DNA of 14,000 nucleotides from positions 1 to 14,000 of IMG/VR virus record IMGVR_UViG_2778261687_000010. One strand, written 5' to 3'. The DNA is from a virus. Taxonomy: Duplodnaviria > Heunggongvirae > Uroviricota > Caudoviricetes. The position numbers and the translations under genes were made by a program. The notes below the pieces were generated by a model. It had not been told where the DNA came from. It saw only the letters and a program-made list of their open reading frames with translations, and ran no database searches. Shown piece after piece: positions 1 through 14,000 of this stretch; the first letter of the stretch is position 1; each line of letters starts with the position of its first letter.

Positions 1-993
1 CTAGTCGGTGGACATTATGTGGACACTCCCACGCATAGGGTTAAATCGTATGGCATCAGTCAGATAATCTGGGGCGAAGTGAGCATATGTCATTGTTTGC
101 TCGATTGTTGTATGACCCAAAATACGCTGTAGCGTGATGATATTCCCGCCGTTGATCATGAAATGTGTTGCGAAGGTATGGCGTAAAACATGCAGTGCCT
201 GACCTTTCGGCAAGTCTGGCTTAATCTTACGAAGAACATCGCGAACTCGCTCATAGTTGGTATCGAACAATTTCCCCGATTTGCGTGTAAGGATGTAGTC
301 CGCGATTTCCTTCGATATCGGAACAGTACGAGCTGGGCCGGTTTTGGTCTTAACAAAGGTCACACGGTTACTTATCACGTTTTCAGCTTTAAGATTACTG
401 GCTTCACCCCATCGTGCTCCTGTATTCAGGCAAAGAACGACAACTCTGCGATCATCCCCTGTAAGGGCATTCAGCAAATGGTGGATCTCTTCTTCGGACA
501 GAAATGACATTTCTGTGTTTTCCAGACGTAACTTCTTCACGGCGCGAAACGGGTTTTCGTGATGAAATTCTTCCATATCTATCAGCAAACTGAACATGCT
601 GGACATGGAACAGAAATCCCTGTTTACCGTGCCAGCAGATACTCCACTATGAAGTCGTTCTGCACGATATTTCATCAGAAAGTTGCGGGTAAGCTCGTAC
701 ACTCTGGGTTCCGCCATTTCTCGGTTGATTTTTTCCAAACGCTTTTTATATGAGTCACCATAGTTGTGATTCTTTCCATGGTAGCTCCACCATAAAGAAA
801 TTAACTCGGATACAAGCCTCCTGTCTGCGGGTTTATCCTGCCATTCTTTATCGTGAAAGTTTGTCAGTACATACCGCTCGTATGCCTGTGCTTCCGCCTT
901 TCTGTCAAATTTGCGTCGAATCCTTCTTCCTGAGGTTCCGCGCGGTCTAACGTCCACTTCAAAACGACCATCATCAAGCTTCTTAATCGACAT
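1..993 (-). CDS. int: Tyrosine recombinase, P2 Int-like integrase
   Basis: ORF 1..1020 on the minus strand. The N-terminus from the internal ATG at 991-993 (MSIKKLDDGRFEVDVRPRG...RRIRRKFD) closely matches my recollection of the P2 Int N-terminus (MAIKKLDDGRYEVDIRP...). The C-terminal catalytic region carries HVLRHTFATH...GGNIITLQRILGH...YAHF, typical of the R..H..R..Y tyrosine recombinase signature. A GGAGGG Shine-Dalgarno sits about 8 nt upstream of the 993 start. The stop codon is at window position 1-3, so attL should lie just outside the window. Confidence 0.9.
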   Translation of the reverse strand: MSIKKLDDGRFEVDVRPRGTSGRRIRRKFDRKAEAQAYERYVLTNFHDKEWQDKPADRRLVSELISLWWSYHGKNHNYGDSYKKRLEKINREMAEPRVYELTRNFLMKYRAERLHSGVSAGTVNRDFCSMSSMFSLLIDMEEFHHENPFRAVKKLRLENTEMSFLSEEEIHHLLNALTGDDRRVVVLCLNTGARWGEASNLKAENVISNRVTFVKTKTGPARTVPISKEIADYILTRKSGKLFDTNYERVRDVLRKIKPDLPKGQALHVLRHTFATHFMINGGNIITLQRILGHTTIEQTMTYAHFAPDYLTDAIRFNPMRGSVHIMSTD

Positions 994-1059
994 AGCGAAG
1001 CCCTCCGATGTATGAATCATTATGTAAATTTTGCGCTAACGCATAGAAAAACCAGATGT

Positions 1060-1359
1060 TTAGCCAATTTTCCGGGTGGAACGGGATGATGTTATGTTGT
1101 CTTGCCCATCAGGGGAGAGAGACGGGGACACCTGCCCCGCAATTGGTGCCGTCTTATCTGTCATTAACCAGAGTGTATATTTTTCAAACATATGTACCTC
1201 TATAACACTTTCTAAGACTTCTGCACGAGCTGGCTGATGGCCAGTTTCGTACTTTTTTATTGTTCCAAGAGCTACCCCAGTAAGCTCTGAAAAATCTTTT
1301 TGAGTTAACCCTTCAGCTTTCCGGATCTGCCGGAGTTTCTCCGCATAATTTCTTGACAT
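1060..1359 (-). CDS. C: Immunity repressor, P2 C-like (99 aa)
   Basis: 99 aa, the same length as P2 C. The C-terminal half (KYTLWLMTDKTAPIAGQVSPSL...) matches remembered P2 C (KYTLWFMTNQIAPESGQIAP...). The N-terminal helix-turn-helix region reads LTQKDFSELTGVALGTIKKYETG. ATG at 1357-1359, divergent from cox. Confidence 0.85.
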   Translation of the reverse strand: MSRNYAEKLRQIRKAEGLTQKDFSELTGVALGTIKKYETGHQPARAEVLESVIEVHMFEKYTLWLMTDKTAPIAGQVSPSLSPDGQDNITSSRSTRKIG

Positions 1360-1467
1360 GGTTCTTGTATCGCAACTATTATTGGTTCTTACAAAAGAAC
1401 CTTGACAAAAGAACCCTAGAACGACTTAAAGCGCCCTAGGAACCCAAACTAACGAAGGATACCACAG
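1360..1467. promoter_or_regulatory. Divergent early promoter/operator region between C and cox
   Basis: 108 bp between divergent C and cox. Five copies of a GGTTCT/AGAACC half-site: inverted copies at 1360-1365 and 1384-1389, direct copies at 1396-1401, 1410-1415 and 1418-1422. These include an 11-bp direct repeat ACAAAAGAACC at 1391-1401 and 1405-1415. A consensus -35 TTGACA lies at 1402-1407 on the plus strand, overlapped by the repeats. An AAGGA RBS sits 9 nt before the cox ATG. Confidence 0.6.
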
Positions 1468-1749
1468 ATGAAGGAACCAGCAGAAAAGGCGCTTTCAGAG
1501 TTGGTGACCCCTGAGCTTTCTGCCGAATATATAGGCAAAACGCCTGCTGCAATTCGCAAAATGGCCACGGCTGGAAAACTGCCGGTAATCCGCATGAAAG
1601 ACCCTCTAAATCCATCAAAAAAAGGTGGGGAAATCTATATCCATCGGGGGGAATGGGATGCTTATGCCATTCATTTGGCTCAAATTGCCCCGCCTGAATG
1701 GCATGACTGGAAGAACCGTTTATTCACGAAAGATAAAAGTGCTCGTTAG
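1468..1749 (+). CDS. cox: Cox-like excisionase / transcriptional regulator
   Basis: 93 aa; IGKTPAAIRKMATAGKLPVIRMKDPLNPSKKGGEIYIHRGEW aligns with remembered P2 Cox (IGKSTGAVRRMIDKGKLPVIDMTDPQSASGRAGEYWVYLPAW). Position is divergent from C, as in P2. Confidence 0.8.
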   Translation: MKEPAEKALSELVTPELSAEYIGKTPAAIRKMATAGKLPVIRMKDPLNPSKKGGEIYIHRGEWDAYAIHLAQIAPPEWHDWKNRLFTKDKSAR

Positions 1750-1775
1750 TAAACTAAATATTATTGGGGATTATC

Positions 1776-2111
1776 ATGAAGACTAAATATGCCACGCTGA
1801 TTCGTAGTCTGTTGCAAAACTATCACGCTCAGGCAAAAACCATTGATAAAGAAACATTCTCTGTACATAGCGATGGCTTGCAGTTAATGGAATTAAACAT
1901 TCAGCTTGCAAAATGCCTTGAGGGTATAACCTCCACTGCTCGCTTTAATAATGATAGTGATGATTTTGAAGAACTGCACAAAATCACGCTTATGGTATTT
2001 GGCGGAAATATACCAACTGAAAATAACATTTCCGGTCTTATGTCGCTGGCTACCACAGCGTTAAAAAGTAATAACTCGCATCTTAAATCTGTTGCAGCTT
2101 CCCAACGTTAA
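1776..2111 (+). CDS. Hypothetical protein (early region)
   Basis: The ORF-track start at 1764 is TTG; the ATG at 1776 is preceded by GGGGA (1766-1770). No motif recognised. Stop at 2109-2111, 9 nt before the next gene. Confidence 0.5.
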   Translation: MKTKYATLIRSLLQNYHAQAKTIDKETFSVHSDGLQLMELNIQLAKCLEGITSTARFNNDSDDFEELHKITLMVFGGNIPTENNISGLMSLATTALKSNNSHLKSVAASQR

Positions 2112-2120
2112 GGAACCGAT

Positions 2121-2690
2121 ATGAAACATTTAATGATTGACCTTGAAACAATGGATAATAAACCGACTTCTGCGATTGCTTCTATCGGTGCTGTATTCTT
2201 TGACCCTGAAACTGGCGAAATGGGTGAACAGTTTTATCAACGTGTCAGCCTGGGCAGCTGTGTAGGCCACGGTCTCACTATGGGGTCAGAAACCGTATTA
2301 TGGTGGATGCGTCAGGATGCCGAAGCGCGTAGCGAGCTGCTTAATGACGATTGTCTGGACTTGCCTCTGACGTTAGCTAATCTGGAAGCTTTTATTACTG
2401 AGCATTCTGACCCATCTAAAGTACAGGTATGGGGGAATAGTGCAGCGTTCGACAATGTTATTTTACGTAATGCATCAGAGAAATGCGGGTTTGCCGATCC
2501 ACTTTGGTACTACTGGAATGACCGTGATGTAAGAACGGTTGTTGAACTGTCAAAAACACTTGGGCTGAATGTTCGTAATATTATTAAGTTTGATGGTGTT
2601 AAACATCACGCTTTATATGATGCCATTCATCAGGCTAAAGTTGTTTCTTATGTCTGGATGTATCTTGTAAAAATAGCCAGTGTGAAATAA
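2121..2690 (+). CDS. DEDDh-type 3'-5' exonuclease-like protein
   Basis: The N-terminal MIDLET motif has the acidic D-x-E pair of DnaQ-like exonucleases, and the C-terminal HHALYDAIH provides an H-x4-D motif. AAGGA RBS at 2110-2114. Confidence 0.6.
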   Translation: MKHLMIDLETMDNKPTSAIASIGAVFFDPETGEMGEQFYQRVSLGSCVGHGLTMGSETVLWWMRQDAEARSELLNDDCLDLPLTLANLEAFITEHSDPSKVQVWGNSAAFDNVILRNASEKCGFADPLWYYWNDRDVRTVVELSKTLGLNVRNIIKFDGVKHHALYDAIHQAKVVSYVWMYLVKIASVK

Positions 2691-2692
2691 CG

Positions 2693-2911
2693 ATGCTTAC
2701 AGTGACCTCTCATGCAAGTAAAAGTGTCATTCACAAGGCATTTTCAGTGCTGACAGAATATTACAACGGCAAAAAGGTATATCAGGTTATTAAGCCAAAA
2801 CATTATTTCTCTGTTCATGTTTCTTATCGCTGGCGATTACTGAGTAAGGATAAGGGCAGAAGCTGGGAACTAATGACACATGAGCGATATAACAAGCAGT
2901 ACAGAATATAG
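2693..2911 (+). CDS. Hypothetical small protein (72 aa)
   Basis: ATG at 2693, 2 nt after the previous stop (possible coupling). Weak RBS and no recognisable motif. Confidence 0.35.
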   Translation: MLTVTSHASKSVIHKAFSVLTEYYNGKKVYQVIKPKHYFSVHVSYRWRLLSKDKGRSWELMTHERYNKQYRI

Positions 2912-2950
2912 TTTTTGCCTTTTACCCATTATTTCACATCTGGATTATTT

Positions 2951-5608
2951 ATGAACGAAACGATACAACAGGACGTTGTGCGCCGTCTTGTTCGGGACTT
3001 TGAATTTAAAGAGCGGGATAAGTATTTGCAGCAGGGCGTTTGCCCTGCCTGTCGTAAGCGCGAATTATTTACCAGCATAGAAAAGCCCTGGATTCTGAAA
3101 TGTGGCCGTGAAAATAACTGCGCACATCAGATTGTCGTGAAAGAGCTGTATCCGGATATCTTTGAAGACTGGTCAAAACGTTACCAGACCACAGAAGATA
3201 ACCCCCATGCAGTAGCTGAGGCGTATCTGCGCGAGGCCAGAGGGCTGGAGACTGAGCCATTAAAAGGCTGTTTTACCCAGGGTGCATTCGTGAAAGATGG
3301 CATGGGGTCGGCAACGGTCAGATTTTCGCTGTCATGCGGTGCAACATGGGAGCGCATCATTGACCAGCCGCAGCGCTTCGGTAAGCAGAAAGCCAACATC
3401 AGGGGAAGCTATGTCGGTCACTGGTGGGTTCCTCCCTTTATCAACCTGCAGGAAGTGAACGAAATCTGGATCACTGAGGGAATCTTCAACGCGCTGAGTC
3501 TGTGCCAGGTAGGGTTACCTGCAGTTGCCACACTGAGCAGTAACAACTATCCGCTGGCCGCACTGGATACGCTGGCCAAAGAACTGGGTGAAAAACCACG
3601 TCCACGTCTTGTATGGGCGTTTGACGGCGATAAAGCCGGCACAAAGCACACACTGGCGTTCGCTGCCCGTAGTGATGCTGCAGGATGGAAAACTCGTGCC
3701 GCGCAGCCGGTGAAATCATCGGCATCGCTGGACTGGAATGACCTGTTGTTACGTAACCGGTTCAGTAAGTCGGACATTAAAAATTATCGCTACTATGGCG
3801 ATCTCCTTCTGGCAAAAAGCCCGACTGAGAAAGCGCTGCTCATGCATCAGCATAACGAGTGGCACTCGTTCTACTTTGAGCATAACTCCCGCATGTACTG
3901 GTTTGAGCTGGATCTGGACAGGTATATGCGAGCCTATGAGCGCATCACCAATACCGGTACCGAAGTGGTGATGGAGTGGGAGGCCAAAGAACGGGCGGTT
4001 AAAGAGTCAGGCGGCGTGACCGAAATAGCTAACTGCTGGCTGACGCCGCTTTACTTTCAGCGGTCTGAACCTACGGACGAGTCCTGGTATTACGTGAAAG
4101 TCAGTATGCCTAACCGGCCAGCCGTGAAAGATACTTTCACGGCTAATCAGCTCACCAGCTCCGCCGAGTTCAAAAAGCGTCTGCTGCACATCGCCAAAGG
4201 GGCGGTGTACACAGGCAGCACCAAACAGCTGGATAAGTTCATCCAGATGCGCCTCCCTGAAATCAAAGAGGTAAAGACGCAGAATTTCATCGGCTATAAC
4301 AAGGATTATGCCGCCTGGTTGTTTAACCGCGTGGCCGTTTGCGATGGCCGGCTGTATGAGATGAACGACGAGGATTACTTCGAAATCAACAGTGCCAGCG
4401 TTAAGAGCCTGAGCCTCACGCCGGCGCTGGATCTGAATCCGAAGCTGAACGAGTTTACTACGGGTTGGGTAGACGATATCTGGACGGCATTTGGTGAAAA
4501 AGGGTATGTGGCGCTGGCGTTCTGGCTGGGGTCGCTGTTTGCCGAACAAATCCGCGAGCGTGACAAGTCATTTCCGTTTCTGGAAATCGTGGGCGAGCCG
4601 GGGACAGGTAAATCCACGCTGATAGAATTTCTCTGGAAGCTCGCCGGCCGTGAGGAATACGAAGGGTTTGACCCATCTAAATCTACCGCCGCCGCGCGTG
4701 GCCGTAACTTCGCCCAGGTCGGTAATCTGCCGGTTGTGCTGATTGAGGGCGACCGTACTACCGATAACGCCAAGCAACGCGCTTTTGACTGGGACGAGCT
4801 GAAATCACTGTATAACGGTCGTGCCTCCCGCGCCGTGGGTATCAAATCGAACAATAACGAGACGTATGAGCCGCCGTTCAGGGGAAGTATTGTGATAGCG
4901 CAAAATGCCGACACAGACGGCAGCAAGGCGTTTCTGGAGCGTATCATCCACATCTATACCGACAAGCGCGGCCAGTCCATTCAGACGCGCCACGCTGCAG
5001 AACGACTTGAACAACTCCCCGTTAGCCAGGTATCCGGATTCACATTACTGGCCACCATGCGCGAAAAAGAAATCATGCAGACGTTCGGCAGGGGGTACGA
5101 GCGAGCTAGGAATGAGCTGGAGTCTAATAGCAGTATTCGCCATATCCGTATTGCAAAGAATCACGCGCAGCTTGTGGGCTTGCTGGAGGCGCTTGCACTT
5201 GTTGTACCGGTGCCGGTTGAACGTATAGAAAAAACGCGTGAAGCCATCACCGCGCTGGCCGTTGAACGTTGTCAGGCACTTAAAAAGGATCATCCTCTGG
5301 TGCAGGAGTTCTGGGAGCTGTTTGATTACTTGGATGAACTGGCACCTTATGGCATCAATCATTCATCAGATGAAAATGAAATCGCGGTTAATTTCAATCA
5401 CATGGAAGAGGTCGCCGCAGCACACCGGCAGCGTATTCCGTTCACGTTAACGGAAATTAAAAAGCTGCTTAAAAACGGCAATGAGCGCCGGTTTATCAGA
5501 CAAAGCACCACGCGCAGCGCGGTAAGTGAGCGCCATAATCGTGGTAAAGGGGATATGCAACGGATGCCGGAAACATTCCGCTGCTGGATATTTGGCCGGG
5601 AAAAGTAA
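2951..5608 (+). CDS. Replicative primase-helicase (zinc ribbon + TOPRIM primase fused to Walker-A NTPase)
   Basis: The ORF-track start at 2915 is TTG; the first ATG is at 2951 (MNETIQQ...). Zinc-ribbon CPACRKRE...CGRENNCAHQ near the N-terminus. TOPRIM-like WITEGIFNALS and AFDGDKAG (DxD). Walker A EIVGEPGTGKSTLIEF, with a candidate Walker B VVLIEGD. The architecture resembles P4 alpha-type primase-helicases and is not a rolling-circle initiator like P2 A. Confidence 0.8.
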   Translation: MNETIQQDVVRRLVRDFEFKERDKYLQQGVCPACRKRELFTSIEKPWILKCGRENNCAHQIVVKELYPDIFEDWSKRYQTTEDNPHAVAEAYLREARGLETEPLKGCFTQGAFVKDGMGSATVRFSLSCGATWERIIDQPQRFGKQKANIRGSYVGHWWVPPFINLQEVNEIWITEGIFNALSLCQVGLPAVATLSSNNYPLAALDTLAKELGEKPRPRLVWAFDGDKAGTKHTLAFAARSDAAGWKTRAAQPVKSSASLDWNDLLLRNRFSKSDIKNYRYYGDLLLAKSPTEKALLMHQHNEWHSFYFEHNSRMYWFELDLDRYMRAYERITNTGTEVVMEWEAKERAVKESGGVTEIANCWLTPLYFQRSEPTDESWYYVKVSMPNRPAVKDTFTANQLTSSAEFKKRLLHIAKGAVYTGSTKQLDKFIQMRLPEIKEVKTQNFIGYNKDYAAWLFNRVAVCDGRLYEMNDEDYFEINSASVKSLSLTPALDLNPKLNEFTTGWVDDIWTAFGEKGYVALAFWLGSLFAEQIRERDKSFPFLEIVGEPGTGKSTLIEFLWKLAGREEYEGFDPSKSTAAARGRNFAQVGNLPVVLIEGDRTTDNAKQRAFDWDELKSLYNGRASRAVGIKSNNNETYEPPFRGSIVIAQNADTDGSKAFLERIIHIYTDKRGQSIQTRHAAERLEQLPVSQVSGFTLLATMREKEIMQTFGRGYERARNELESNSSIRHIRIAKNHAQLVGLLEALALVVPVPVERIEKTREAITALAVERCQALKKDHPLVQEFWELFDYLDELAPYGINHSSDENEIAVNFNHMEEVAAAHRQRIPFTLTEIKKLLKNGNERRFIRQSTTRSAVSERHNRGKGDMQRMPETFRCWIFGREK

Positions 5609-5654
5609 CGGTTCACTAGTGCCTAACTTTATTGTTAGGGGAAGGAGCGAACAT

Positions 5655-5700
5655 TGAAGCAATAGGGGCGTTATCTTTATTGCTTCATTCTTATTTTAAA
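5655..5700 (+). terminator. Hairpin plus T-tract after the primase gene (candidate intrinsic terminator)
   Basis: 10-bp inverted repeat TGAAGCAATA (5655-5664) / TATTGCTTCA (5678-5687) followed by TTCTTATTTT. The stop codon of the convergent minus-strand gene (5677-5679) lies inside the hairpin. A second short hairpin, CCTAAC-N6-GTTAGG, is at 5622-5639. Confidence 0.45.
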
Positions 5701-6396
5701 GTTCTTTAATTTACCGTACAGAGTATCCCGCAGGGAAAACGAAGGAACCCAATCAAAACCAGTACGCCAGGGGCGTGGACTGCCATGAAAGCAAACAACC
5801 GCCACATTATCAGGGACTTTCCCTGTCGCAGCCTCAGAGGCTAAATTTGCATTGAAGCCAATCATCGAGGGGGTGGCGATGTCACATTTATAACTAACAA
5901 TTGAGCCAGGAATGATATCCTGCCATAGGGCTGGTTTTATGATGCTACCGAGAAATCCCTGATCACCCCATTTGTCTTCAGTCTGACAATTGCGCATAAT
6001 TTTCTCAGGATCAATAATGAATTGTTCCCAAATCGTCTTTTTAATCGACGCCGGAATCATCATTATTGATGAGTTTACTCTTGAGGCATGGTTAAACTCC
6101 CGAAGCATTGTAAATTTCTTCGCACCTTCGAAAATATGAATATCTCCCGTGACCACAACATCTACGTCAAAATAGAGTAAATCTTGGTCTCCAAGGACTG
6201 GGTGATTAGGATTAAATAGTTCAATTTTAGACCACCATCCCGGCCAGTTATAAAGCAAAGGGGTTGTGTTAACTCCAGGAATATTATCTGCATCGGTTAA
6301 ACATATAGATGGAATATCTTTGAACTGACGATGAAGCCATTGGGCGTGTTTAGGGGTAAACTCTTTACTACATTTAAGAACTGAGACTATTAACAT
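5677..6396 (-). CDS. Cargo protein, putative GT-A-fold (DxD) nucleotide-sugar transferase-like; function unknown
   Basis: 239 aa with an ATG at 6394-6396 and a strong GGGAGG Shine-Dalgarno about 8 nt upstream. Visibly more AT-rich than the flanking prophage genes. Contains LLYFDVDVVVTGDI (hydrophobic strand plus DxD) and C-terminal FHGSPRPW, reminiscent of GT8-type glycosyltransferase motifs. No obvious transmembrane segments. Bounded by terminator-like hairpins on both sides. Confidence 0.75.
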   Translation of the reverse strand: MLIVSVLKCSKEFTPKHAQWLHRQFKDIPSICLTDADNIPGVNTTPLLYNWPGWWSKIELFNPNHPVLGDQDLLYFDVDVVVTGDIHIFEGAKKFTMLREFNHASRVNSSIMMIPASIKKTIWEQFIIDPEKIMRNCQTEDKWGDQGFLGSIIKPALWQDIIPGSIVSYKCDIATPSMIGFNANLASEAATGKVPDNVAVVCFHGSPRPWRTGFDWVPSFSLRDTLYGKLKNFKIRMKQ

Positions 6397-6500
6397 AAGA
6401 TGCCTCCCAAAATTTGGAAAGATAATATCATGTTTAGGAGGGGGGGACTATTAATCACTTGGTCATTCATCGACGTTGATAGATGGGAATCTGTTACATC

Positions 6501-6536
6501 TCAGAAAATAAAAGCACCGGTAGCGGTGCTTTTTTC
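6501..6536 (-). terminator. Intrinsic terminator downstream of the ogr-like gene
   Basis: Hairpin AGCACCG-GTAG-CGGTGCT at 6513-6530, flanked by T-runs on both strands: TTTTTT at 6531-6536 on the plus strand, and TTTATTTTCTGA on the minus strand (complement of 6501-6512). It lies directly after the ogr stop (6536-6538) and separates ogr from the 5677-6396 cargo gene. Confidence 0.55.
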
Positions 6537-6865
6537 TATGCGGCAGCAGTGCCGTCCTGACTCAGAAACTTTAACATCAGCTGCTTTTGCTGGATATCAA
6601 GGCTGTTACAGATAGTGGCGATCAACGCATCGCTGGATTTGGCGCTGGGGCTGATGGTATGTGAGAATGTCATATTCATCACAAAAGTGTGACCACATTC
6701 AACATCGGTACACGCGCAATATAAATCCGACAGTTCCTTGTGTTTTCGGGCTGTTTTTTTGATAACAGCCCTTGCCTCACATACCGGACAGTAAACCTTC
6801 ATTACCCGCATATCCATCGCTCCGGAAGTTGGAAAACGATGATATTTTAGCCTTTTTGCGAACAT
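6536..6865 (-). CDS. ogr: Ogr/Delta-family zinc-finger late transcription activator
   Basis: CPVCEARAVIKK...YCACTDVECGHTFV fits the Ogr/Delta C-x2-C...C-x4-C zinc-finger pattern (P2 Ogr: CPLCQ...YHQCQNVNCSATFI). The longest ORF starts at the ATG at 6863-6865, overlapping the portal stop as TAATG. Internal ATGs at about 6809-6817 (MDMRVMKVYCP...) would give a more Ogr-like N-terminus. Confidence 0.75.
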   Translation of the reverse strand: MFAKRLKYHRFPTSGAMDMRVMKVYCPVCEARAVIKKTARKHKELSDLYCACTDVECGHTFVMNMTFSHTISPSAKSSDALIATICNSLDIQQKQLMLKFLSQDGTAAA

Positions 6866-7884
6866 TAATCACCTTCCAGCTCACTGTCTTTCAGGAAATT
6901 AAGGTACAGGTGGGGCGGTACATCACTTTCCTGTTCCACTGCGGCGGTAAACATGCGCTGAATGGGCAAAATTTCTGCTTTGCGGTAGGTTTTGGACGCT
7001 TTCTCAACATCTCCCATTACTGCGCCGTTCGTCGGGATAATCCCCGCCAGTCCTGCCGGGAATCGATGCGCGGTCAGTACGTCCTGGGCGCTGATGCTCT
7101 TGATGTTCTGAAACTCATCTTTGGCGCTGATATCCCCAATCGGGATAAATTTGATGCCGTCCGGATCGCCTTTGGGGATGTTCACAAACATGGTGCTGAA
7201 GTTCCCGATCCCCTTTGACTGCTCCAGCTTCTGAATAATTTCTTCTTCCACTTCATCAGTCATATTTGGGTCGTTACAGTAGATCATGCCACCTGTGTGT
7301 CCGCCGTTATGGTAGTAACGCCGACGAAAAATTGTTGCCTCACCGTTAAGCAGGGCAGAATGGATACCGCTGATATAATCCGGCAGACCATAAATCGCCT
7401 GTTGCGGATCGTACTGCCTGAGAAAAATAATATCTTCAGGCGGATAAATCATCGGTTCACCCTGCTGCAGTACCACAAACTCCCCGGTCTTACGCTGGCG
7501 GGTATAGAGTGCCGGCAGCGGGTACAGTGCCACCACATCCCCCCAGCCGTTACGCACTTTCAGAATGGCCACATCACCGAAGGTCAGCCAGTCGAACACG
7601 GCTGCACCAAGCTGTTCATGCGTCAGTCCGCCGTCTTTATAGTTTGCCGTCACCATATTGCGACGGGCATACAGCACACCGCCGTGCTGCGCGTTCAGGT
7701 TCACCAGTTGCGCCAGCGCCAGCCGGTCAATCGGGAGCGTCCAGTGTTCCGCTTCATTGTCATACCAGACGTCTGTGTAGTTTGTGCCGGTCGTCAGAAT
7801 GGGTTCCGGTTTACCCAGGGTAATAAGGCTCATATGGCGCGGCTTGCTGGCGGTGCGGCGTTCCCTGTATTTCCGTTTTTTCAT
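6865..7884 (-). CDS. Q: Portal protein, P2 gpQ-like
   Basis: 339 aa, with a size and position typical of P2 Q (immediately downstream of the terminase large subunit on the same strand). AGGGA RBS upstream; the start overlaps the stop of the upstream gene as ATGA. Confidence 0.75.
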   Translation of the reverse strand: MKKRKYRERRTASKPRHMSLITLGKPEPILTTGTNYTDVWYDNEAEHWTLPIDRLALAQLVNLNAQHGGVLYARRNMVTANYKDGGLTHEQLGAAVFDWLTFGDVAILKVRNGWGDVVALYPLPALYTRQRKTGEFVVLQQGEPMIYPPEDIIFLRQYDPQQAIYGLPDYISGIHSALLNGEATIFRRRYYHNGGHTGGMIYCNDPNMTDEVEEEIIQKLEQSKGIGNFSTMFVNIPKGDPDGIKFIPIGDISAKDEFQNIKSISAQDVLTAHRFPAGLAGIIPTNGAVMGDVEKASKTYRKAEILPIQRMFTAAVEQESDVPPHLYLNFLKDSELEGD

Positions 7885-8855
7885 GCTGCTTTCCCTAAGT
7901 TACCCCAGCGTGATTTTCGCTGGTTTTCAAAGTTTAATGGCTCGTTGTCAATGGCATGGGCGATAGCCCAGAAACTGTCTGCGTGTCCTGTTTCTGCTGT
8001 GCGATCGGCGACGAAAGTCATTGCGTTGCCGCTGGCCGTGGACGTACGGCGGATGGTCATAAAGCTGGCGGCGATTTCGGTCTTCTCCTTATCCCATTCC
8101 ACGCGGCCGTCTTCGATAACGTCGATCATCTTCATCACCAGACGATTTTTGGTCTCGACGCCGTAGCGGATCGCCACTGCCTGACGCATGGCAAAGTGCT
8201 GAACGTCTTCAAAGACACCGCTACCCAGTCCAGTGATATCAATGCCGATGTAGGTCATGTTGTACTGGCCAAACAGCTTCTTAATCTGTGCCGCCTGCCA
8301 CTTCCAGTTCATCCCCTGCCAGTGGAATACACGCAGTACCCGAAATTTTTCGCCGGCCACTATCGGCGGCGCGATGATCACGAAGGTGGAGGTGTCTCCG
8401 CTGCGAGCCGGGTCATAACCCGCCCACACTTCACGGTTGCCGAACGGCCGGGGCAGGTTTTCGTCATGATCCTCCCAGATATCCGGATCTACACAGCAGC
8501 GTTCTACGTGAGAGAACGAAAATACGCTGTCCTTGCTGTCCACGAACACGCACATATACAGCATGTTGAAAGTGTCGCGGTTGTAGCGGTTGCGCAGCTT
8601 CCCGATGCTGGCGAGATTAAACCCGCCTGCGATCGCGTCTTCCATTGTGATGATGTAGCGCCACTGCCCATCAGGACATAACCGTCCACCGTCGCGCAGC
8701 TCCTTCTCCGTGGGAAATTGTACGCGCGCGCGTTTTTTGTCACCGCGCTTCCATTCTTCACCAGTCCAGAACGGGTACGCCTGGTGCGTTTTGCTGCTGG
8801 GGGTGGAAAAGTAGGTGGTTCGCCATTTGTCGTGTGTGGCCATCGCGCTGGCCAC
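7881..8855 (-). pseudogene. P: Terminase large subunit (P2 gpP-like), 5'-truncated: nuclease domain only
   Basis: The ORF begins with GTG at 8853-8855 and the frame is open only back to about 8885. The C-terminal half carries nuclease-domain features (WAGYDPARSGDTSTFVIIA, GIDITGLGSG, HADSFWA). No Walker A (GxxxxGK[ST]) anywhere. At about 324 aa it is far shorter than typical large terminases, so the ATPase half is missing. Confidence 0.7.
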
Positions 8856-8879
8856 TTCGTTTAATTTTGCAAAGTTGGG

Positions 8880-9100
8880 TATCTGCTATTGAAACCCGTC
8901 TGGGTGAGGCGGAAGAAGCGGTATCTGATGTGCAGGACGATGTGGACACCGTGAAGGAAGTAGTGGACACCGAAGATTTTGCGCGTCTGGTGGGGAACCT
9001 GCCGGAGCTGGTGAAAAACTTCAGCAAGCTGAATAACAAAGTTACTCAACTGCCGGACAAGAAATTCAGCAAGGGCAAAAAAGGCTTCAATTTCCTGTAA
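8880..9100 (+). pseudogene. O: Capsid scaffold (P2 gpO-like) 3' fragment
   Basis: Short acidic, coiled-coil-like ORF tail (AIETRLGEAEEAVSDVQDDVDTVKEVVDTEDF...KKFSKGKKGFNFL) ending 34 nt before the capsid gene, as O precedes N in P2. Only about 70 codons are plausibly scaffold. The assignment rests on position and composition. Confidence 0.4.
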
Positions 9101-9134
9101 GGGATAACACTACTTTTCTTTAAGGAAAAAGAAT

Positions 9135-10163
9135 ATGCAATTAAATGCGAAAGCCCGTGAGTTTCTGCTTCAGTATCACACCGGGCTGCGTGAATCCTAC
9201 GGGGCGACCGACAGCGAACGCTGGTTTGCACTCACCGACCCCAAAGAAACCCAGCTGCGCAATGCGCTGATGGAGCAGTCTGATTTCCTGAATCTGATCA
9301 CCGTTGCCGATGTCGATCAGCTGCAGGGGCAGGTGGTTCCGGTTGGCAGCTCTGGCCTGTATACCGGGCGTGTACTGGATGGCCGCTTCCGTAAGAAAGT
9401 GGGCGTGAGTGGTAATGATTACAGTCTGGTCGAGACCGACTCATGCGCCGCACTCACCTGGCAGTTGCTTTCTGTCTGGGCGAACGCCGGCGATGAAAAC
9501 GAGTTTTTCCAGCGTGTTCAGGAGTTCACCAATCAGGCGTTTGCGCTGGATATGCTGCGTATCGGCTTTAACGGTACCAAAGTGGCTGAGACCACGAACG
9601 CGGAAACCAACCCGAACGGCGAGGATGTGAACAAGGGCTGGCATCAGATCGTCAAAGAGTGGAAGGACGGCCAGCAGATCATCACTGATGCGGTGGTGCT
9701 TGACGGTGACGGGAAAGGCGATTACGTGTCGCTGGATGCAATGGCCTCCGACCTTATCAACGCCAAAATCCCGGCACAGTACCGTAATGATCCACGCCTG
9801 GTGGTTCTTGTCGGCGCTGATCTGGTCGCGGCGGAGTCGTTCCGTCTGTATCAGAAAGCAGACAAACCCACGGAGAAGATCGCCGCGCAACTGCTGTCTG
9901 ACAGCATCGCCGGCCGCACGGCTTACGTACCGCCGTTTATGCCAGGCAAACGCATGATTGTTACGACACTGCCAAACCTGCACATCTACACCCAGCGCGG
10001 CACGCGTCAGCGTAAAGCGGAGTTTGTGGAAGACCGTAAACAGTACGAAAACAAATACCTGCGTAACGAAGGTTATGCGGTTGAGTATCCGGAACTGTAC
10101 GCCGCGTTTGATGAAAGTGCGGTAGCTATCGGGGCACCTGTCGCGCCTCCGGCAGGCGAGTAA
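9135..10163 (+). CDS. N: Major capsid protein, P2 gpN-like
   Basis: 342 aa, with several blocks matching remembered P2 gpN: FLNLITVADV vs FLTRINIVPV, IGFNGTKVAETTNAETNP vs AGFNGVKRAETSDRSSNP, DPRLVVLVGADLVAAESF vs DPDLVVIVGRQLLADKYF. AAGGAAAAAG RBS upstream. Confidence 0.85.
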   Translation: MQLNAKAREFLLQYHTGLRESYGATDSERWFALTDPKETQLRNALMEQSDFLNLITVADVDQLQGQVVPVGSSGLYTGRVLDGRFRKKVGVSGNDYSLVETDSCAALTWQLLSVWANAGDENEFFQRVQEFTNQAFALDMLRIGFNGTKVAETTNAETNPNGEDVNKGWHQIVKEWKDGQQIITDAVVLDGDGKGDYVSLDAMASDLINAKIPAQYRNDPRLVVLVGADLVAAESFRLYQKADKPTEKIAAQLLSDSIAGRTAYVPPFMPGKRMIVTTLPNLHIYTQRGTRQRKAEFVEDRKQYENKYLRNEGYAVEYPELYAAFDESAVAIGAPVAPPAGE

Positions 10164-10173
10164 GGGGGATTTA

Positions 10174-10743
10174 ATGCAACTGTCACCGGCACAGCGCCAC
10201 AGCGCACGAATTGAAGCGGAGCGGTTACTGCGACAGCAGCAGTCTCTGGACACGGAAACCAGCCTGCATATTCAGATTGTCGCGCTGGAGAAAGATGTCG
10301 CCGCAGCTGCAGCGATTGAAAGCCGCGCTGAGCGAATGGAATTTAAGCGTGATGTGCTGTTACCGCGCTGGATGCCAACCGCGCAATCCTGGCTGGAAGG
10401 TGACAGTGTGCAACAGAATCCTGTTTTTGCCTGGTGTGTCGTCTGGCTGTTTGATACAGGCCAGTTTGACCAGGCGCTGGACTGGGCGGATGTGGCAATC
10501 CAGCGGGGGCAGGAAACCCCGGCCGCGTTCGGCAGTACGTTCCCGGTGTTTGTGGCGGATACGGTGTTGTCCTGGGCGGAAGCGGAAGCCGTACAGGGGC
10601 ATGATGTGGAGCCGTATTTTGGCCGTACGCTGGAAAACGTGACGCAGCACTGGAATGTGTATGAGGTCATTAAGGCCAAATACGGGGATGGCCATAAAAG
10701 GCGCGTTATCGCCGGCTATCGAAATGTACGACGCGCTGAATGA
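10174..10743 (+). pseudogene. M: Terminase small/endonuclease subunit (P2 gpM-like), probably 3'-truncated
   Basis: N-terminal MQLSPAQRHSARIEA, LLPRWMPT and WLFDTGQFDQALDWADVAI resemble P2 gpM (SPAQRH..., LLPFWLPW, WRLDTGDIAGALEIARYAL). At 189 aa it is shorter than the roughly 247 aa I recall for P2 gpM. Its 3' end overlaps, out of frame, an ORF with tape-measure character. AAGGGGGA RBS upstream. Confidence 0.65.
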
Positions 10744-11419
10744 TGCCGCCGCAAAAGGGATTGATAATCAGGCATTAAAGACAGTACAGCGTGACGCGCT
10801 CCGGTTCAGCATGACCTACGGTGCCAGCGCGGTGGAGTTCGTCAAATCCACAGAGAACATTAACGCTTCCATTGCCGGCCTTACCGCCAGCGAGCTGCCG
10901 AAAGTGACGAAGGTCGCTAATACGCTGGCATTTGCCCTGAAATCCACATCCGCCGACACGGCGGAGTTCATGGGGCAGATGTACGGTAACTTTTCCGCCG
11001 ATGCGGCGCGGCTGGGTAAAGTCCAGTTCGCTGAGCAACTGGCGGGGAAAATGGTGTATATGCGCAAGGTCTTCGGTACCGAAATGGGTACCATCAAAGA
11101 CCTGATGGAAGGGGCGCGAGGTGTCGGGACTAACTACGGCGTCGGGCTGGATGAACAGCTGGCGGTGCTGGGACAGCTAAATCGTACGCTGGGAACAGAA
11201 GCCAGTAGCGCTTACGAAGGCTTCATGACCGGCGCGATGGAGGGAGCTAAAAAGCTGGGGCTGTCCTTCACGGACTCCACCGGCAAAATGCTGTCCATGC
11301 CTGAAATGCTGATCAAGCTGCAGGGCAAATACGGCAAAAGCCTGGAAGGGAACCTGAAAGCCCAGGCGGAGCTGGATGCGGCATTTGGTGACAGTTCAGC
11401 GGTGATAAAACACCTGTAG
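10655..11419 (+). pseudogene. T: Tail tape measure protein fragment (core region)
   Basis: The translation has tape-measure core character: Ala/Gly/Leu-rich with repeated GxxxA and LGxxA blocks (e.g. LAVLGQLNRTLGTEASSAYEGFMTGAMEGAKKLG). It is only about 250 aa, starts inside the M ORF in another frame, and no tail genes precede it. Confidence 0.6.
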
Positions 11420-11454
11420 CCGGGTGTTATCTGCTGATTAAACACTGGGATGAT

Positions 11455-11901
11455 GTGAAAGCGGCGGTGATGAATACGGCAGCGTTTACCGCCGTGGCTG
11501 GTGTGGTGGAATGGCTTGCCGGCGTGTTTTCCGCTGCGTGGCAATGGATCACGGACGGCTGGAACAGCTTTATTGCGCTGCTGACCGGGTTTTCACCGTC
11601 ACAGGCGTTAAGCGGCATGGCCAGCGGGATTGTTTCCCTGTTTGATAACGTCTGGCAGACCATCAAAGGCGGGTTCCTGAAATCGTGGAACTGGATTGTC
11701 GGAAAACTCAATAAAATTCCGGGCGTCGATATTTCACTGGCGAACGAATCTCAACCGGCACTGACAACGAATACCAGAACATTATCGCCTGATTTCTCAA
11801 CCAGCCCGCGTCATGCGGGCTTTATCGCACCCACCAGACCTCACCAGACGCATTCTGAGCGCCGACAGTATCTACACCCGCTCCAATCCCAACTTAATTA
11901 G
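11455..11901 (+). pseudogene. T: Tail tape measure protein fragment (second piece, different frame)
   Basis: W-rich repeats typical of tape-measure C-terminal regions (AAWQWITDGWNSF..., VWQTIKGGFLKSWNWIVGKL). The frame differs from the 10655-11419 piece, and the last 40 or so codons look like out-of-frame read-through. Confidence 0.45.
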
Positions 11902-11976
11902 CTTTAAAAGCACAGCAAGGCGCTGATGCAGCCTGCCACGACGAAATAACGGCGGAAGTGACGAAAACGGCGCTAC

Positions 11977-12000
11977 ACCGCACCCGCCTGCGGTTTTCGT
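11977..12000 (+). terminator. Candidate intrinsic terminator
   Basis: ACCGCA-CCCGCC-TGCGGT hairpin (6-bp GC-rich stem) at 11977-11994 followed by TTTCGTGTT. Confidence 0.35.
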
Positions 12001-12452
12001 GTTGAGAATGATTTCAGTTTTTCTGGGGGTACAAAACACATCGCCAGACTGCGCCAGCGCTGGGGCTTTGGCGGTAGTTCACCGACTGAAATATGTGAAA
12101 CAGATTTCAAGGATTACAGTTTTTGTGCAATTACCGGCCGTGGGTGAAAAATGACGGTGCCGGACTTCATGCGGGTTTAACAGTGATTACGTGACTTTTA
12201 ACGTAACGGCCGCAGCGGGATCACGTAAGCGGGAGAAAGTGACAAGGCCTTATTTGATGTGTTCTGGCGCGGAATGACCGTGAGATGCGGAACTGAAATA
12301 CTTTGCACAGCCTGAACTATAGCCATACCTACATTAACGTACTGCACCAATGCTCAAATCACTAACAGAGATATATACAAAACCACCAACAAATCAGGGT
12401 GATTTCTGACCACTTCTAATTTTTTCAAAAATTTAGGGGGAGCATCGGAAAA

Positions 12453-12718
12453 CCGTCACAAACATCACAGATTTAAAAAATATCATTTATCTATATGATA
12501 TGTATAAGTAAATTCATATATTGAAAACCATCACAAGAGCATCACAAGAGCATCACAGTGTGACGGCCTTAAAACATCACAACTCTGTTTTATAACTCGC
12601 TGAATTTATAGGGTGTGACGGTTTACGTTACGTTTTGTGATGGTTTTACCATCACAACATTTATTCATGATAATCAGATGGTTAATGGTTTTTTTTGTGG
12701 GGCGTGATGGTTGTGACG
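12453..12718. repeat. Iteron-like array: about 12 copies of C(C/A)(G/A)TCACA(A/G) in both orientations flanking an AT-rich tract
   Basis: Direct copies at 12453-12460, 12463-12470, 12529-12536, 12540-12547, 12551-12558, 12575-12582 and 12649-12656. Inverted copies (TGTGA(C/T)GG) at 12559-12566, 12614-12621, 12636-12643, 12703-12710 and 12712-12718. Includes a tandem 11-mer CATCACAAGAG x2 (12529-12550) and a perfect palindrome TGTGATGG-TTTTA-CCATCACA (12636-12656). An AT-rich stretch at 12471-12528 sits between the first and second repeat clusters. Confidence 0.7.
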
Positions 12719-12785
12719 TTTTTCCGATGGGCAACTTAAAAATGCTAAGTAAGACGAAACAAAATTTTAACAGCGTGGTGGGATA

Positions 12786-12805
12786 GCGCCCCTGTTCAGG
12801 GGCGC
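12786..12805. terminator. GC-rich hairpin just downstream of the acyltransferase gene (possible terminator)
   Basis: GCGCCCCTG-TT-CAGGGGCGC perfect inverted repeat beginning 8 nt past the minus-strand stop codon (12813-12815). There is no strong U-tract on either side, so its terminator function is uncertain. Confidence 0.3.
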
Positions 12806-12812
12806 AAATGTT

Positions 12813-14000
12813 CTACTTTGCAATCTGAAGTTGAGGACGCTTATGTATGATGCTGCGACTTTCGACATATTTGTACATAACCGGCGCAATGATACCTGCC
12901 GCAATAATTGCACAAATCTGCCAAACATAGTTTCCTGCACTATATAAATAATGTTTAGATACTGTTTGAGTTATCCCATGAACTAAATAAAGGGAGAAAC
13001 TGCAGGTTCCCAGCATAGTTACAGGCAGGGATGTAAGTAAGCCAAAGTAATCACATCCGCACTTTATTGTGTAGAAAACAATAAACATATAAAGCGGAGT
13101 TGTAGTGTTGTAAGCATGTCGAGTAAAATATATGGCTGCGAATAATAATAAAGCGCAGATTATATCTGATGGGCGCTTGTTGCTCTTGATTGTAGCGACA
13201 AGAAATCCTGCAAGGAAATACATTATATAACTCAGGTGTTGTTCATTGTTTATAAAATACTTGAATAATAAAACACATCCCATTAAAAAAATAACAAATG
13301 CTTCTTTATATTTGATGTTTTTCATTATCAGATATAAAAATGGAATTGCAAGGTATAGGCGTAATTCCCAGACTAACGTCCAGAACACACCAGATGTGGC
13401 AATCTGGAGCGATACACCATTGATGTTAGCGCCAGGCGGATTGAATATAAATGGTAATGAAGATATAAACCATTGCGATACTGGAGTATGGTTATCCGGA
13501 TTCATGATAAATGTTGCAATATATATTATAAATAAAAGAACAACTACAGGTGGGTAAATTCGCATGAATCGTGAAATTGCAAAGCTTTTTACATCGAAGG
13601 AGTCCGCTAGTGCCTTTTTGAAAAATAAAAAAGCAGACAGCATAAAAAAGACCCCAACAGATAACTCTCCTGTTAGATATATGGCGCGTTTTACATTGCT
13701 GAGTGTAATGTACTCAAGAGACCAGTATATATCTGATTCTCCTCCGGCTCTCCAGTAAAGATGGAATACAGCAACCATTGCTGCACAAATTCCACGTAAG
13801 CCATCAAGCGAGGCGTATTTATGTTTTGCAGGTGTAATACCCAATAACTTAGAAGTGACATATATTGTCGCTATAAGTATGCTGAGATAAAGTCCGTATT
13901 CAAAAATATATTTCATTATAATAATTACGCTTGGTGTTTTTATGGATGTTAACATTTTTTGCGGATGTCGGGAATGCTCTGTGGACTTATTGACACGCAT
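12813..14000 (-). CDS. Acyltransferase-3 family integral membrane protein (O-antigen/polysaccharide O-acetyltransferase-like)
   Basis: SLDGLRGICAAMVAVFHL matches the N-terminal signature of acyltransferase-3 / OafA / Oac-type enzymes (LDGLRG...A..VV..H). The remainder is highly hydrophobic with multiple predicted transmembrane segments. The region is very AT-rich. The true start is uncertain: the ORF is open to the window edge, and in homologues the LDGLRG motif lies about 10-35 residues from the N-terminus, so an internal start is plausible. Confidence 0.8.
   Translation of the reverse strand: MRVNKSTEHSRHPQKMLTSIKTPSVIIIMKYIFEYGLYLSILIATIYVTSKLLGITPAKHKYASLDGLRGICAAMVAVFHLYWRAGGESDIYWSLEYITLSNVKRAIYLTGELSVGVFFMLSAFLFFKKALADSFDVKSFAISRFMRIYPPVVVLLFIIYIATFIMNPDNHTPVSQWFISSLPFIFNPPGANINGVSLQIATSGVFWTLVWELRLYLAIPFLYLIMKNIKYKEAFVIFLMGCVLLFKYFINNEQHLSYIMYFLAGFLVATIKSNKRPSDIICALLLFAAIYFTRHAYNTTTPLYMFIVFYTIKCGCDYFGLLTSLPVTMLGTCSFSLYLVHGITQTVSKHYLYSAGNYVWQICAIIAAGIIAPVMYKYVESRSIIHKRPQLQIAK

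Follow-up and report, generated by a model that had tools for sequence, protein, structure and literature searches.

A dyad-symmetric iteron array in a degraded P2-like prophage of Escherichia coli as the probable replication origin of the prophage's own primase-helicase

Results

The prophage and its gene-free kilobase

The DNA analysed here, which we call the window, is a stretch of 14,000 nucleotides (positions 1 to 14,000 of the IMG/VR virus record IMGVR_UViG_2778261687_000010). It holds a degraded P2-like prophage of the Evevirus type, not a P4-type satellite, which keeps portal, terminase, capsid and tail remnants. In a stretch of about 1 kb without annotated genes (~11792-12812) this prophage carries an array of 12 short repeats (iterons), which is the subject of this report and which, judged from its sequence and from that of its relatives, very probably serves as the replication origin for the primase-helicase encoded by the prophage itself (Table 1). 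Compared with the 28.9-kb prophage found in about 15 complete E. coli genomes, the window aligns at 99.9% identity in five pieces and is therefore a copy with four internal deletions. Through them it lost most of the tail genes and part of the genes for the large terminase and the scaffold; int, C, cox, the primase-helicase gene and the candidate origin array remain intact.

In the intact prophage, which is flanked by pheA/pheL on one side and by raiA on the other, the gene order is int, a helix-turn-helix repressor, cox, an exonuclease and a 'toprim domain-containing protein', then a small cargo slot, ogr, the portal and terminase genes (on the opposite strand), scaffold, capsid and small terminase, and finally the tail genes, about 1 kb without a gene, and an acyltransferase gene (on the opposite strand). 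The nearest named relative is Escherichia phage ESSI2_ev239 (Peduoviridae, Evevirus), whose array is 91.7% identical to that of the window and is situated between an O-acetyltransferase gene and the tail genes. The cohesive-end site cos could be placed from related phages, as the record of Cronobacter phage ESSI-2 both starts and finishes with the 15-mer CTACACCGCACCCGC and the record of ESSI2_ev239 breaks at the same position; a cos 19-mer is present in more than 119 viral contigs. The window thus reads tail genes, cos, 456 bp, array, cargo and attR (the prophage end at raiA), and the circular phage would read int, attP, cargo, array and cos, which places the array between attP and cos, as in related P2-like phages. 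An alignment of seven variants showed an 800-bp conserved block within the gene-free kilobase, with the flank of cos conserved to ~12130.

Table 1. Positions of the array, of its parts and of other features (window coordinates unless another record is named).
Feature	Position	Strand	Basis or remarks
Whole iteron array, putative origin	12443..12730	.	12 iterons in a dyad-symmetric scaffold; counts, repeats, divergence, folding
Iterons on the + strand	12453, 12462, 12528, 12539, 12550, 12574, 12649	+	motif count
Iterons on the - strand	12558, 12613, 12635, 12702, 12711	-	motif count
Left terminal element: CATCGGAAAAC, iteron CGTCACA, 2 bp (aa), iteron CATCACA	12443..12469	+	inverted-repeat search
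AT-rich tract, 57 bp, 86% A+T against 50% for 1-11790; putative unwinding element	12470..12526	.	composition
Three tandem iterons with 11-bp spacing (+), abutting one inverted iteron (CATCACAG/TGTGACGG)	12528..12566	.	repeats, array comparison
Iteron (+) 12574-12582, 30-bp A+T-rich spacer, iteron (-) 12613-12621	12574..12621	.	array comparison
Perfect palindrome TTGTGATGGT-ttt-ACCATCACAA, 10+10, two head-to-head iterons	12635..12657	.	inverted-repeat search
Match to the integration host factor (IHF) consensus, AATCAGATGGTTA, in the third AT-rich spacer	12672..12684	+	the window has 3 such matches in all
Right terminal element: iteron CGTGATG, 2 bp (gt), iteron TGTGACG, then TTTTTCCGATG	12702..12730	-	left end in inverted orientation
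Toprim / DUF5906 (P-loop) primase-helicase, 885 aa, proposed iteron-binding initiator	2951..5608	+	Pfam Toprim_2/3, DUF5906
Array of phiCTX (NC_003278)	35100-35390 of that record		ATTACC / GGTAAT; 12 of the genome's 18 copies
Array of Smp131	33053-33325 of that record		AGGTAA; 9 of the genome's 12 copies
Array of RSY1	spans the record junction		GGTAAY
Phage cos, cohesive-end sequence CTACACCGCACCCGC	11973..11987	+	record ends of related phages; context, not part of the array
O-acetyltransferase-like acyltransferase cargo gene, low G+C	12813-13916	-	annotation
Glycosyltransferase-like cargo protein (phrog_1962)	5677-6396	-	protein match
Deletion joints relative to the 28.9-kb prophage of NZ_AP023286 (1088313-1117180 of that record)	8881, 10683, 11418, 11775	.	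alignment

Repeat content and architecture of the array

The word CRTCACA occurs 14 times on the two strands of the window, against 4.03 +/- 2.04 times in dinucleotide-preserving shuffles, none of which (0 of 200) reached 14. Eleven of these matches fall inside 12454-12718, where the Poisson expectation for 265 bp is 0.076 (P(>=11) ~1e-20). The remaining three are scattered singletons, with no other cluster in the window, and the same motif count found no copies in the C/cox intergenic operator region. When one degenerate position is allowed, 12 copies of (C/A/G)C(A/G)TCACA are found in 12453-12719 (267 bp), seven on the + and five on the - strand, with the consensus iteron (C/A/G)C(A/G)TCACA(A/G). 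A first-pass annotation, made from the sequence without database searches, had noticed a dense array of CATCACA-type octamers at 12440-12730, and these counts confirm both the array and its local enrichment over background. The parts which that annotation had described are also present, namely the tandem 11-mer (CATCACAAGAG twice, then CATCACAG, at 12540-12558), the perfect palindrome, the adjoining AT-rich stretch, given as roughly 60 bp, and the position of the whole in a long stretch free of open reading frames.

Taken as a whole, the array is a dyad-symmetric scaffold of ~290 bp in which the iterons are interleaved with three A+T-rich spacers. The two ends are inverted repeats of each other over 37 nt, with 81% complementarity, and because of this dyad symmetry the array, as single-stranded DNA, folds far better than its shuffles (z = -6.3); a scan of 11700-12900 against Rfam found no known RNA family. 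The AT-rich tract follows the iteron pair at 12453-12470 and is itself followed by the iterons from 12528 onwards, such that two sets of iterons flank an AT-rich region, which would be the DNA-unwinding element. IHF would bind in the third spacer, at its consensus match.

Conservation and distribution of the array

Of 5426 complete E. coli genomes, 22 have the array, each in a single copy that without exception lies in this prophage at the syntenic position, and so it is not a common intergenic repeat family. It was also found in at least 11 viral contigs. In comparisons with six diverged phage copies, 2-3 of the 84 positions within iterons are changed (2-4%), against 27-59 of the 237 spacer positions (11-25%), a difference with Fisher P values from 5e-7 to 0.047. 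The few changes in the iterons are mostly at the A/G position. This pattern indicates that the iterons are under purifying selection. To the right of the array the sequence is wholly different between relatives because the cargo differs, and a cargo gene can also sit on the left, making the array a conserved island in variable DNA. The right terminal element is exactly kept in seven viral contigs and in a copy carried by a Salmonella plasmid.

This plasmid copy, in the IncF plasmid CP053580 (68173-68397; positions 8001-8225 of our sequence L006), is truncated and 71.6% identical, is without the left end and a central piece, and lies between an acyl-protein synthase operon and a DUF883 gene. 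Furthermore, the sub-unit at 12574-12621 survives as a two-iteron fragment in other E. coli prophages at the same pheA-raiA attachment site (L004 and L005, 6001-6057 in both), where it stands upstream of an ATP-dependent nuclease cargo gene and is followed by an 8-bp tandem repeat, (GCGATGAA)n, in 6-8 copies. The same block was found behind a prophage that is Evevirus-like and behind another that is classic P2-like, suggesting an exchange of cargo between prophages that share one attachment site. Both the plasmid copy and the two-iteron fragments look like relics of recombination.

The primase-helicase

The proposed initiator matches phrog_1139 ('DNA primase') end to end and is 40-47% identical, over its full length, to orf37 of phiCTX and to the primases of Ralstonia phage RSY1 and Stenotrophomonas phage Smp131, with more than 2000 homologues in all. 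Compared with the alpha protein of P4, BLASTP returned two short segments, at the Toprim domain and at Walker A (E 0.002-0.003); the domain order is alike and the family differs. A search of its sequence against solved structures gave no match below E = 0.3. The last 216 residues were modelled with a predicted local distance difference test (pLDDT) score of 91.4, as a helical bundle followed by a beta-alpha-alpha-beta-alpha-beta unit. The top Foldseek match of this model is the Cch helicase of the staphylococcal cassette chromosome mec (SCCmec), with a probability of 0.94 and E 0.03, and it also matches Rep of SaPIbov, a Staphylococcus aureus pathogenicity island (SaPI). Both proteins are initiator helicases of the self-loading type, and SaPI Rep works at an origin made of iterons. 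The fold matches are weak and are consistent with an origin-recognition region at the C-terminus of the primase-helicase.

In the window, which is a deleted prophage, the array lies 6.8 kb downstream of the primase gene, and on the circle of ESSI2_ev239 it lies ~4.5 kb from the start of that gene, across attP. The remoteness implied in the first-pass annotation's comparison with the remote iterons of P4 holds on the prophage map only. Directly upstream of the primase-helicase gene, at 2693-2911 (+), is encoded a 72-aa protein with a ParE-like toxin domain, a protein that relatives with primases of 61-63% identity encode at the corresponding place.

Arrays of the same design in phages, satellites and viral contigs

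Each phage with a phiCTX-type primase that we examined (phiCTX, Smp131 and RSY1) has an array of like design between attP and cos. These arrays share with that of the window a length of ~270-290 bp, the dyad layout, paired end iterons preceded by GGAAA(A), A+T-rich spacers and an IHF site. They differ from it in the iteron word, GGTAAY there and CCRTCACA in the window, and in their surroundings, given that the window phage has the acyltransferase gene between the array and attP, and the structural block across cos. In the phiCTX record the array is labelled only as 'region containing R3 repeats', together with two IHF sites, one of which its curators place in the AT-rich spacer. E. coli P4-like satellites, whose primase is 52% identical to that of the window, have their array downstream of the primase gene, immediately on one side or the other of the neighbouring integrase gene. 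In the satellite L028 the iteron word is CGGTTACA, and all 12 copies in the element are inside the array; in the satellite L024 the word is GGTTACA.

We then scanned 80 viral contigs in which a homologue of the primase C-terminus is encoded, and ~17 of them have an array in reach, with spans of 252-287 bp and with the words GGTAACA, GGTCACA, CGTTACA, GGTTACA, CCTTACA or ATTACC. Looking for the same array in related elements, as had been proposed on first inspection, therefore found it in the three phages, in the satellites and in these contigs. The arrays share a common scaffold. From left to right it consists of a G-run, TCGGAAAA ((T)CGGAAAA), an iteron, 2 bp, a second iteron and ~55 bp of A+T; then of two or three tandem iterons, an inverted iteron, a spacer and a head-to-head palindrome; and at its right end of an A+T spacer, an inverted iteron pair, TTTTCCGA (TTTTCCG) and a C-run. 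The array of the window fits this scaffold element by element, and only the iteron word differs.

The individual parts recur as follows. The left end (TCGGAAAA, iteron, N2, iteron) is also found in RSY1 and in the related sequences L058, L060 and L081; L028 has the paired left iterons, but its flank reads GCGCAAAG. An AT-rich tract of ~55-60 bp comes after the first iteron pair in every related array that we read. L028 shares with the window the tandem-then-inverted iterons (GGTTACATGTAACC) and, together with L060 and L081, an equivalent palindrome (TGTAACCGCaaaGCGGTTACA in L028). An IHF-like element, ATCA-N5-(G/C)TTA, is present in an AT-rich spacer of most of the related arrays that we read, among them L028, L058 and L060 (in L060 as an exact match to the consensus), and not in that of L081.

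Two contigs, L116 (IMGVR_UViG_3300010279_000222) and L246 (2850535167_000002), have the cos of the window, its conserved block, its scaffold and its distance from cos, with the iterons GGTTACA in place of CRTCACA. They would represent a natural swap of origins, known here from the cos and array side alone. A different arrangement was seen in L215, L164, L191, L216 and similar contigs, which have the cos of the window and in which a shorter cluster of GGTAACA (~175 bp) is found on the far side of a small reverse gene, ~700-880 bp right of cos, and has no CGGAAAA ends.

The array follows the type of primase

Cronobacter phage ESSI-2 and Yersinia phage vB_YenM_324 have the cos, the cos flank and the structural gene order of the window, together with a nickase of the P2 gpA type (rolling-circle), and neither has the array. 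The same cos 19-mer, with a sufficient length of sequence downstream of it, was available in 102 viral contigs. In 82 of these no cluster of repeats is seen at that place; of the remaining 20, about half have iteron arrays like that of the window, the rest scoring only on ACTGAAA/TGCAAAA repeats of the cos flank. No array was found in any of the seven cos-bearing contigs with a gpA gene in reach, and eight viral contigs (one of them cut by the contig end) carry a window-type primase together with a CRTCACA array. Because relatives of the gpA type are without the array and primase-type contigs have it, the comparison indicates that the array tracks the primase-helicase and not the packaging or structural module.

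Features around the array

In this lineage cos comes after the tail genes, and not beside the portal gene as in P2. Within 320 bp to its right there are 4-6 copies of the repeat ACTGAAA, which recur in ~100 viral contigs and are likely to be terminase recognition sites. The ends of the public record of ESSI2_ev239 (NC_049392) appear to carry Nextera adapter sequence and a chimeric fragment resembling a tail fibre gene. Beside int in the same phage (our sequence L003, 26742-26959), six of the genome's nine copies of GTCCACA are clustered; these are probably the Int arm-type sites of attP, distinct from the array. As for the cargo, the glycosyltransferase-like gene occupies the slot between the primase gene and ogr, the content of which varies among relatives, and both this gene and the acyltransferase gene likely have products that modify lipopolysaccharide.

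Discussion

The first-pass annotation had raised the possibility that the array is an origin or another cis-acting site for the element's own primase-helicase. This idea is supported by the selection on the iterons, by the related arrays and by the absence of the array from relatives with gpA. The array would be of a known type, the iteron origin of a self-loading primase-helicase, and for the scaffold family to which it belongs, including the R3 region of phiCTX, we found neither a published description nor an assignment as an origin.

By analogy with P4 alpha at ori/crr and with Rep of the SaPIs and of other phage-inducible chromosomal islands (PICIs) at their origins, we hypothesise the following mechanism. 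Once the early operon is derepressed, the primase-helicase would recognise the iterons through its C-terminal helical and winged-helix-like region, and would assemble on the inverted terminal iteron pairs and on the central palindrome, probably with IHF bending the DNA at 12672-12684. It would next melt the tract at 12470-12526, load itself as the replicative helicase and prime with its own primase domain, as a result of which theta replication of the excised circle would start at the array.

P4 offers the first parallel. Its ori and crr, like the array, consist of 8-bp iterons in both orientations, often in pairs 2 bp apart, beside A+T-rich DNA, and alpha, like the initiator proposed here, combines in one chain a Toprim primase, a P-loop helicase and, at the C-terminus, a DNA-binding region (putative in the protein of the window). 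On the other hand, P4 has two regions 4.5 kb apart, of which crr is a 120-bp direct duplication, whereas the window has one dyad-symmetric array. The P4 iteron, TGTTCACC, differs from that of the window, and the similarity between the two proteins is marginal. The analogy with P4 that had been drawn at the outset therefore stands as far as an origin for a primase-helicase is concerned; it fails for the ori/crr pair, there being one array, and the likeness to alpha is remote (E 0.002).

The second parallel is with the SaPI and PICI origins. In the pri-rep-ori region of EcCICFT073, a putative melting site rich in A+T is bracketed by two sets of short iterons, which a self-loading initiator helicase recognises (PMC6092414), and a plasmid-maintenance assay was used there for autonomous replication that depends on the initiator (PMC6092414). 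Iteron binding, opening of the A+T-rich DNA and self-priming are the way in which P4 alpha acts at ori/crr and PICI Rep at its origin (PMC6092414 and the P4 annotation). The array resembles these origins in that iteron sets flank an A+T-rich region, and the C-terminal model of the primase matches SaPIbov Rep and SCCmec Cch. A further likeness is that in satellite relatives the array closely follows the primase gene, beside the integrase gene. The differences are that the array of the window is not immediately 3' of the initiator gene, that the initiator is a fusion with a Toprim primase and belongs to another sequence family, and that the scaffold of the window comprises conserved CGGAAAA ends, a palindrome at its centre and three A+T spacers.

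Several points weigh against an origin at this place. The array is not adjacent to the initiator gene, unlike the origins of SaPIs and PICIs, and the iteron words do not sort simply by the clade of the primase C-terminal domain. In L114, a contig that encodes a primase of the window type, the 888 nt that can be read beyond cos contain no array, possibly as the result of a deletion, and the array copy in the Salmonella plasmid CP053580 is an orphan, no homologue of the primase being found in that plasmid. The co-occurrence of array and primase is also partly confounded by the shared ancestry of whole early regions. Finally, our literature search found no binding, melting or replication assay for the array or for the R3 region of phiCTX.

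An alternative that we consider improbable is that the array is an enhancer of the crr kind, or a site that titrates the initiator, with synthesis starting elsewhere, for example in or near the primase gene as at P4 ori2 or N15 repA. P4 requires crr in addition to ori for its replication, and according to the P4 annotation crr lies between alpha and attP, adjoining attP just as the arrays of phiCTX, RSY1 and ESSI2_ev239 do; in Smp131 and in the window phage there are cargo genes between attP and the array. The orphan copy in the plasmid would also fit, as it shows that an array can persist without a primase. Nevertheless, the window has no second iteron cluster, the 12 copies of CGGTTACA in the L028 satellite are all in its array, and the array of the window possesses its own 86% A+T tract flanked by iterons, which is the standard anatomy of a melting site (PMC6092414).

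We give still less credit to a multi-operator region controlling cargo or late genes, at which C, Cox, Ogr or a host factor would bind. The many short dyad sites and the variable cargo on both sides of the array are what such a region might have, and there are four weak sigma-70-like promoter matches in it; however, 2.4 are expected, so that promoters are not enriched, and the motif is absent from the C/cox operator region. The acyltransferase gene runs toward the array and ends in a hairpin before it. At the same time, the array is conserved while the cargo differs among relatives, and it is found also in satellites with quite different regulators.

It is no more credible that the array is a packaging site of the cosB kind, recognised by the small terminase subunit. 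The array is 456 bp from cos in the window and is near cos also in phiCTX, Smp131 and RSY1, and the cosB of lambda likewise consists of short repeats and an IHF site. Yet the same cos 19-mer and flank occur without the array in ESSI-2, in YenM_324 and in the 82 viral contigs, and the iteron word varies among phages that have one cos (L116 and L246 against the window). In the satellites, moreover, the arrays follow the primase gene, and the ACTGAAA repeats close to cos are better candidates for terminase sites.

A partition site, a recombination accessory site or a miniature transposable element with 29-37-nt inverted ends can be largely set aside, for although there are 11-bp tandem repeats as in parC, inverted terminal repeats and a copy in a plasmid, neither a scan of nine window proteins nor the RefSeq annotation for the intact prophage showed a ParA, ParB or ParM, the array is single and always syntenic, its flanks continue as conserved phage sequence, and the probable Int arm sites of ESSI2_ev239 (GTCCACA, six copies) are beside int, more than 1.3 kb away. 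Neither the partition site nor the multi-operator region, both of which the first-pass annotation had offered as readings, found support. A transposon or miniature element, considered on account of the inverted ends, does not fit a single-copy, syntenic array with flanks of conserved phage DNA. Two further candidates were rejected. A plasmid origin does not agree with the only plasmid match, the truncated orphan in CP053580, which is far from the rep genes of that plasmid, a plasmid that has no primase. As for a CRP-type site, the TGTGA half-sites, read from the sequence, are spaced by N11 and not by N6.

An origin for the prophage's own primase-helicase therefore remains the explanation that we favour, and it has consequences for the family. 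The array provides a candidate origin for P2-like phages of the phiCTX type, a group for which our literature search found no defined origin of replication, and it suggests a purpose for the long-annotated 'R3 repeats' of phiCTX, a region to which none of the papers that we found assigns a function. A single scaffold with at least six iteron words across phages and satellites is also a ready series for change in initiator-origin specificity, and it gives a simple signature with which to annotate origins in P2-like prophages and P4-like satellites.

We further put forward, as a speculation that we ourselves regard as rather doubtful, that the array belongs to an unrecognised portable origin cassette that P2-like phages of the helper type have in common with the P4-like satellites exploiting them, a cassette in which a fixed scaffold of ~265 bp (inverted iteron pairs flanked by CGGAAAA, three A+T spacers, an IHF site and a central palindrome) is retained and a word of 7-8 bp is rewritten together with the specificity of the primase. 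If this were true, nearly identical words, such as CGTCACA/CATCACA here and GGTCACA in the satellite-like L058, could permit cross-replication between helper and satellite, competition between origins, or incompatibility. For the prophage of the window itself, the combination of int, C/cox, an intact primase-helicase gene and the putative origin means that, although defective, it could still over-replicate in place if derepressed.

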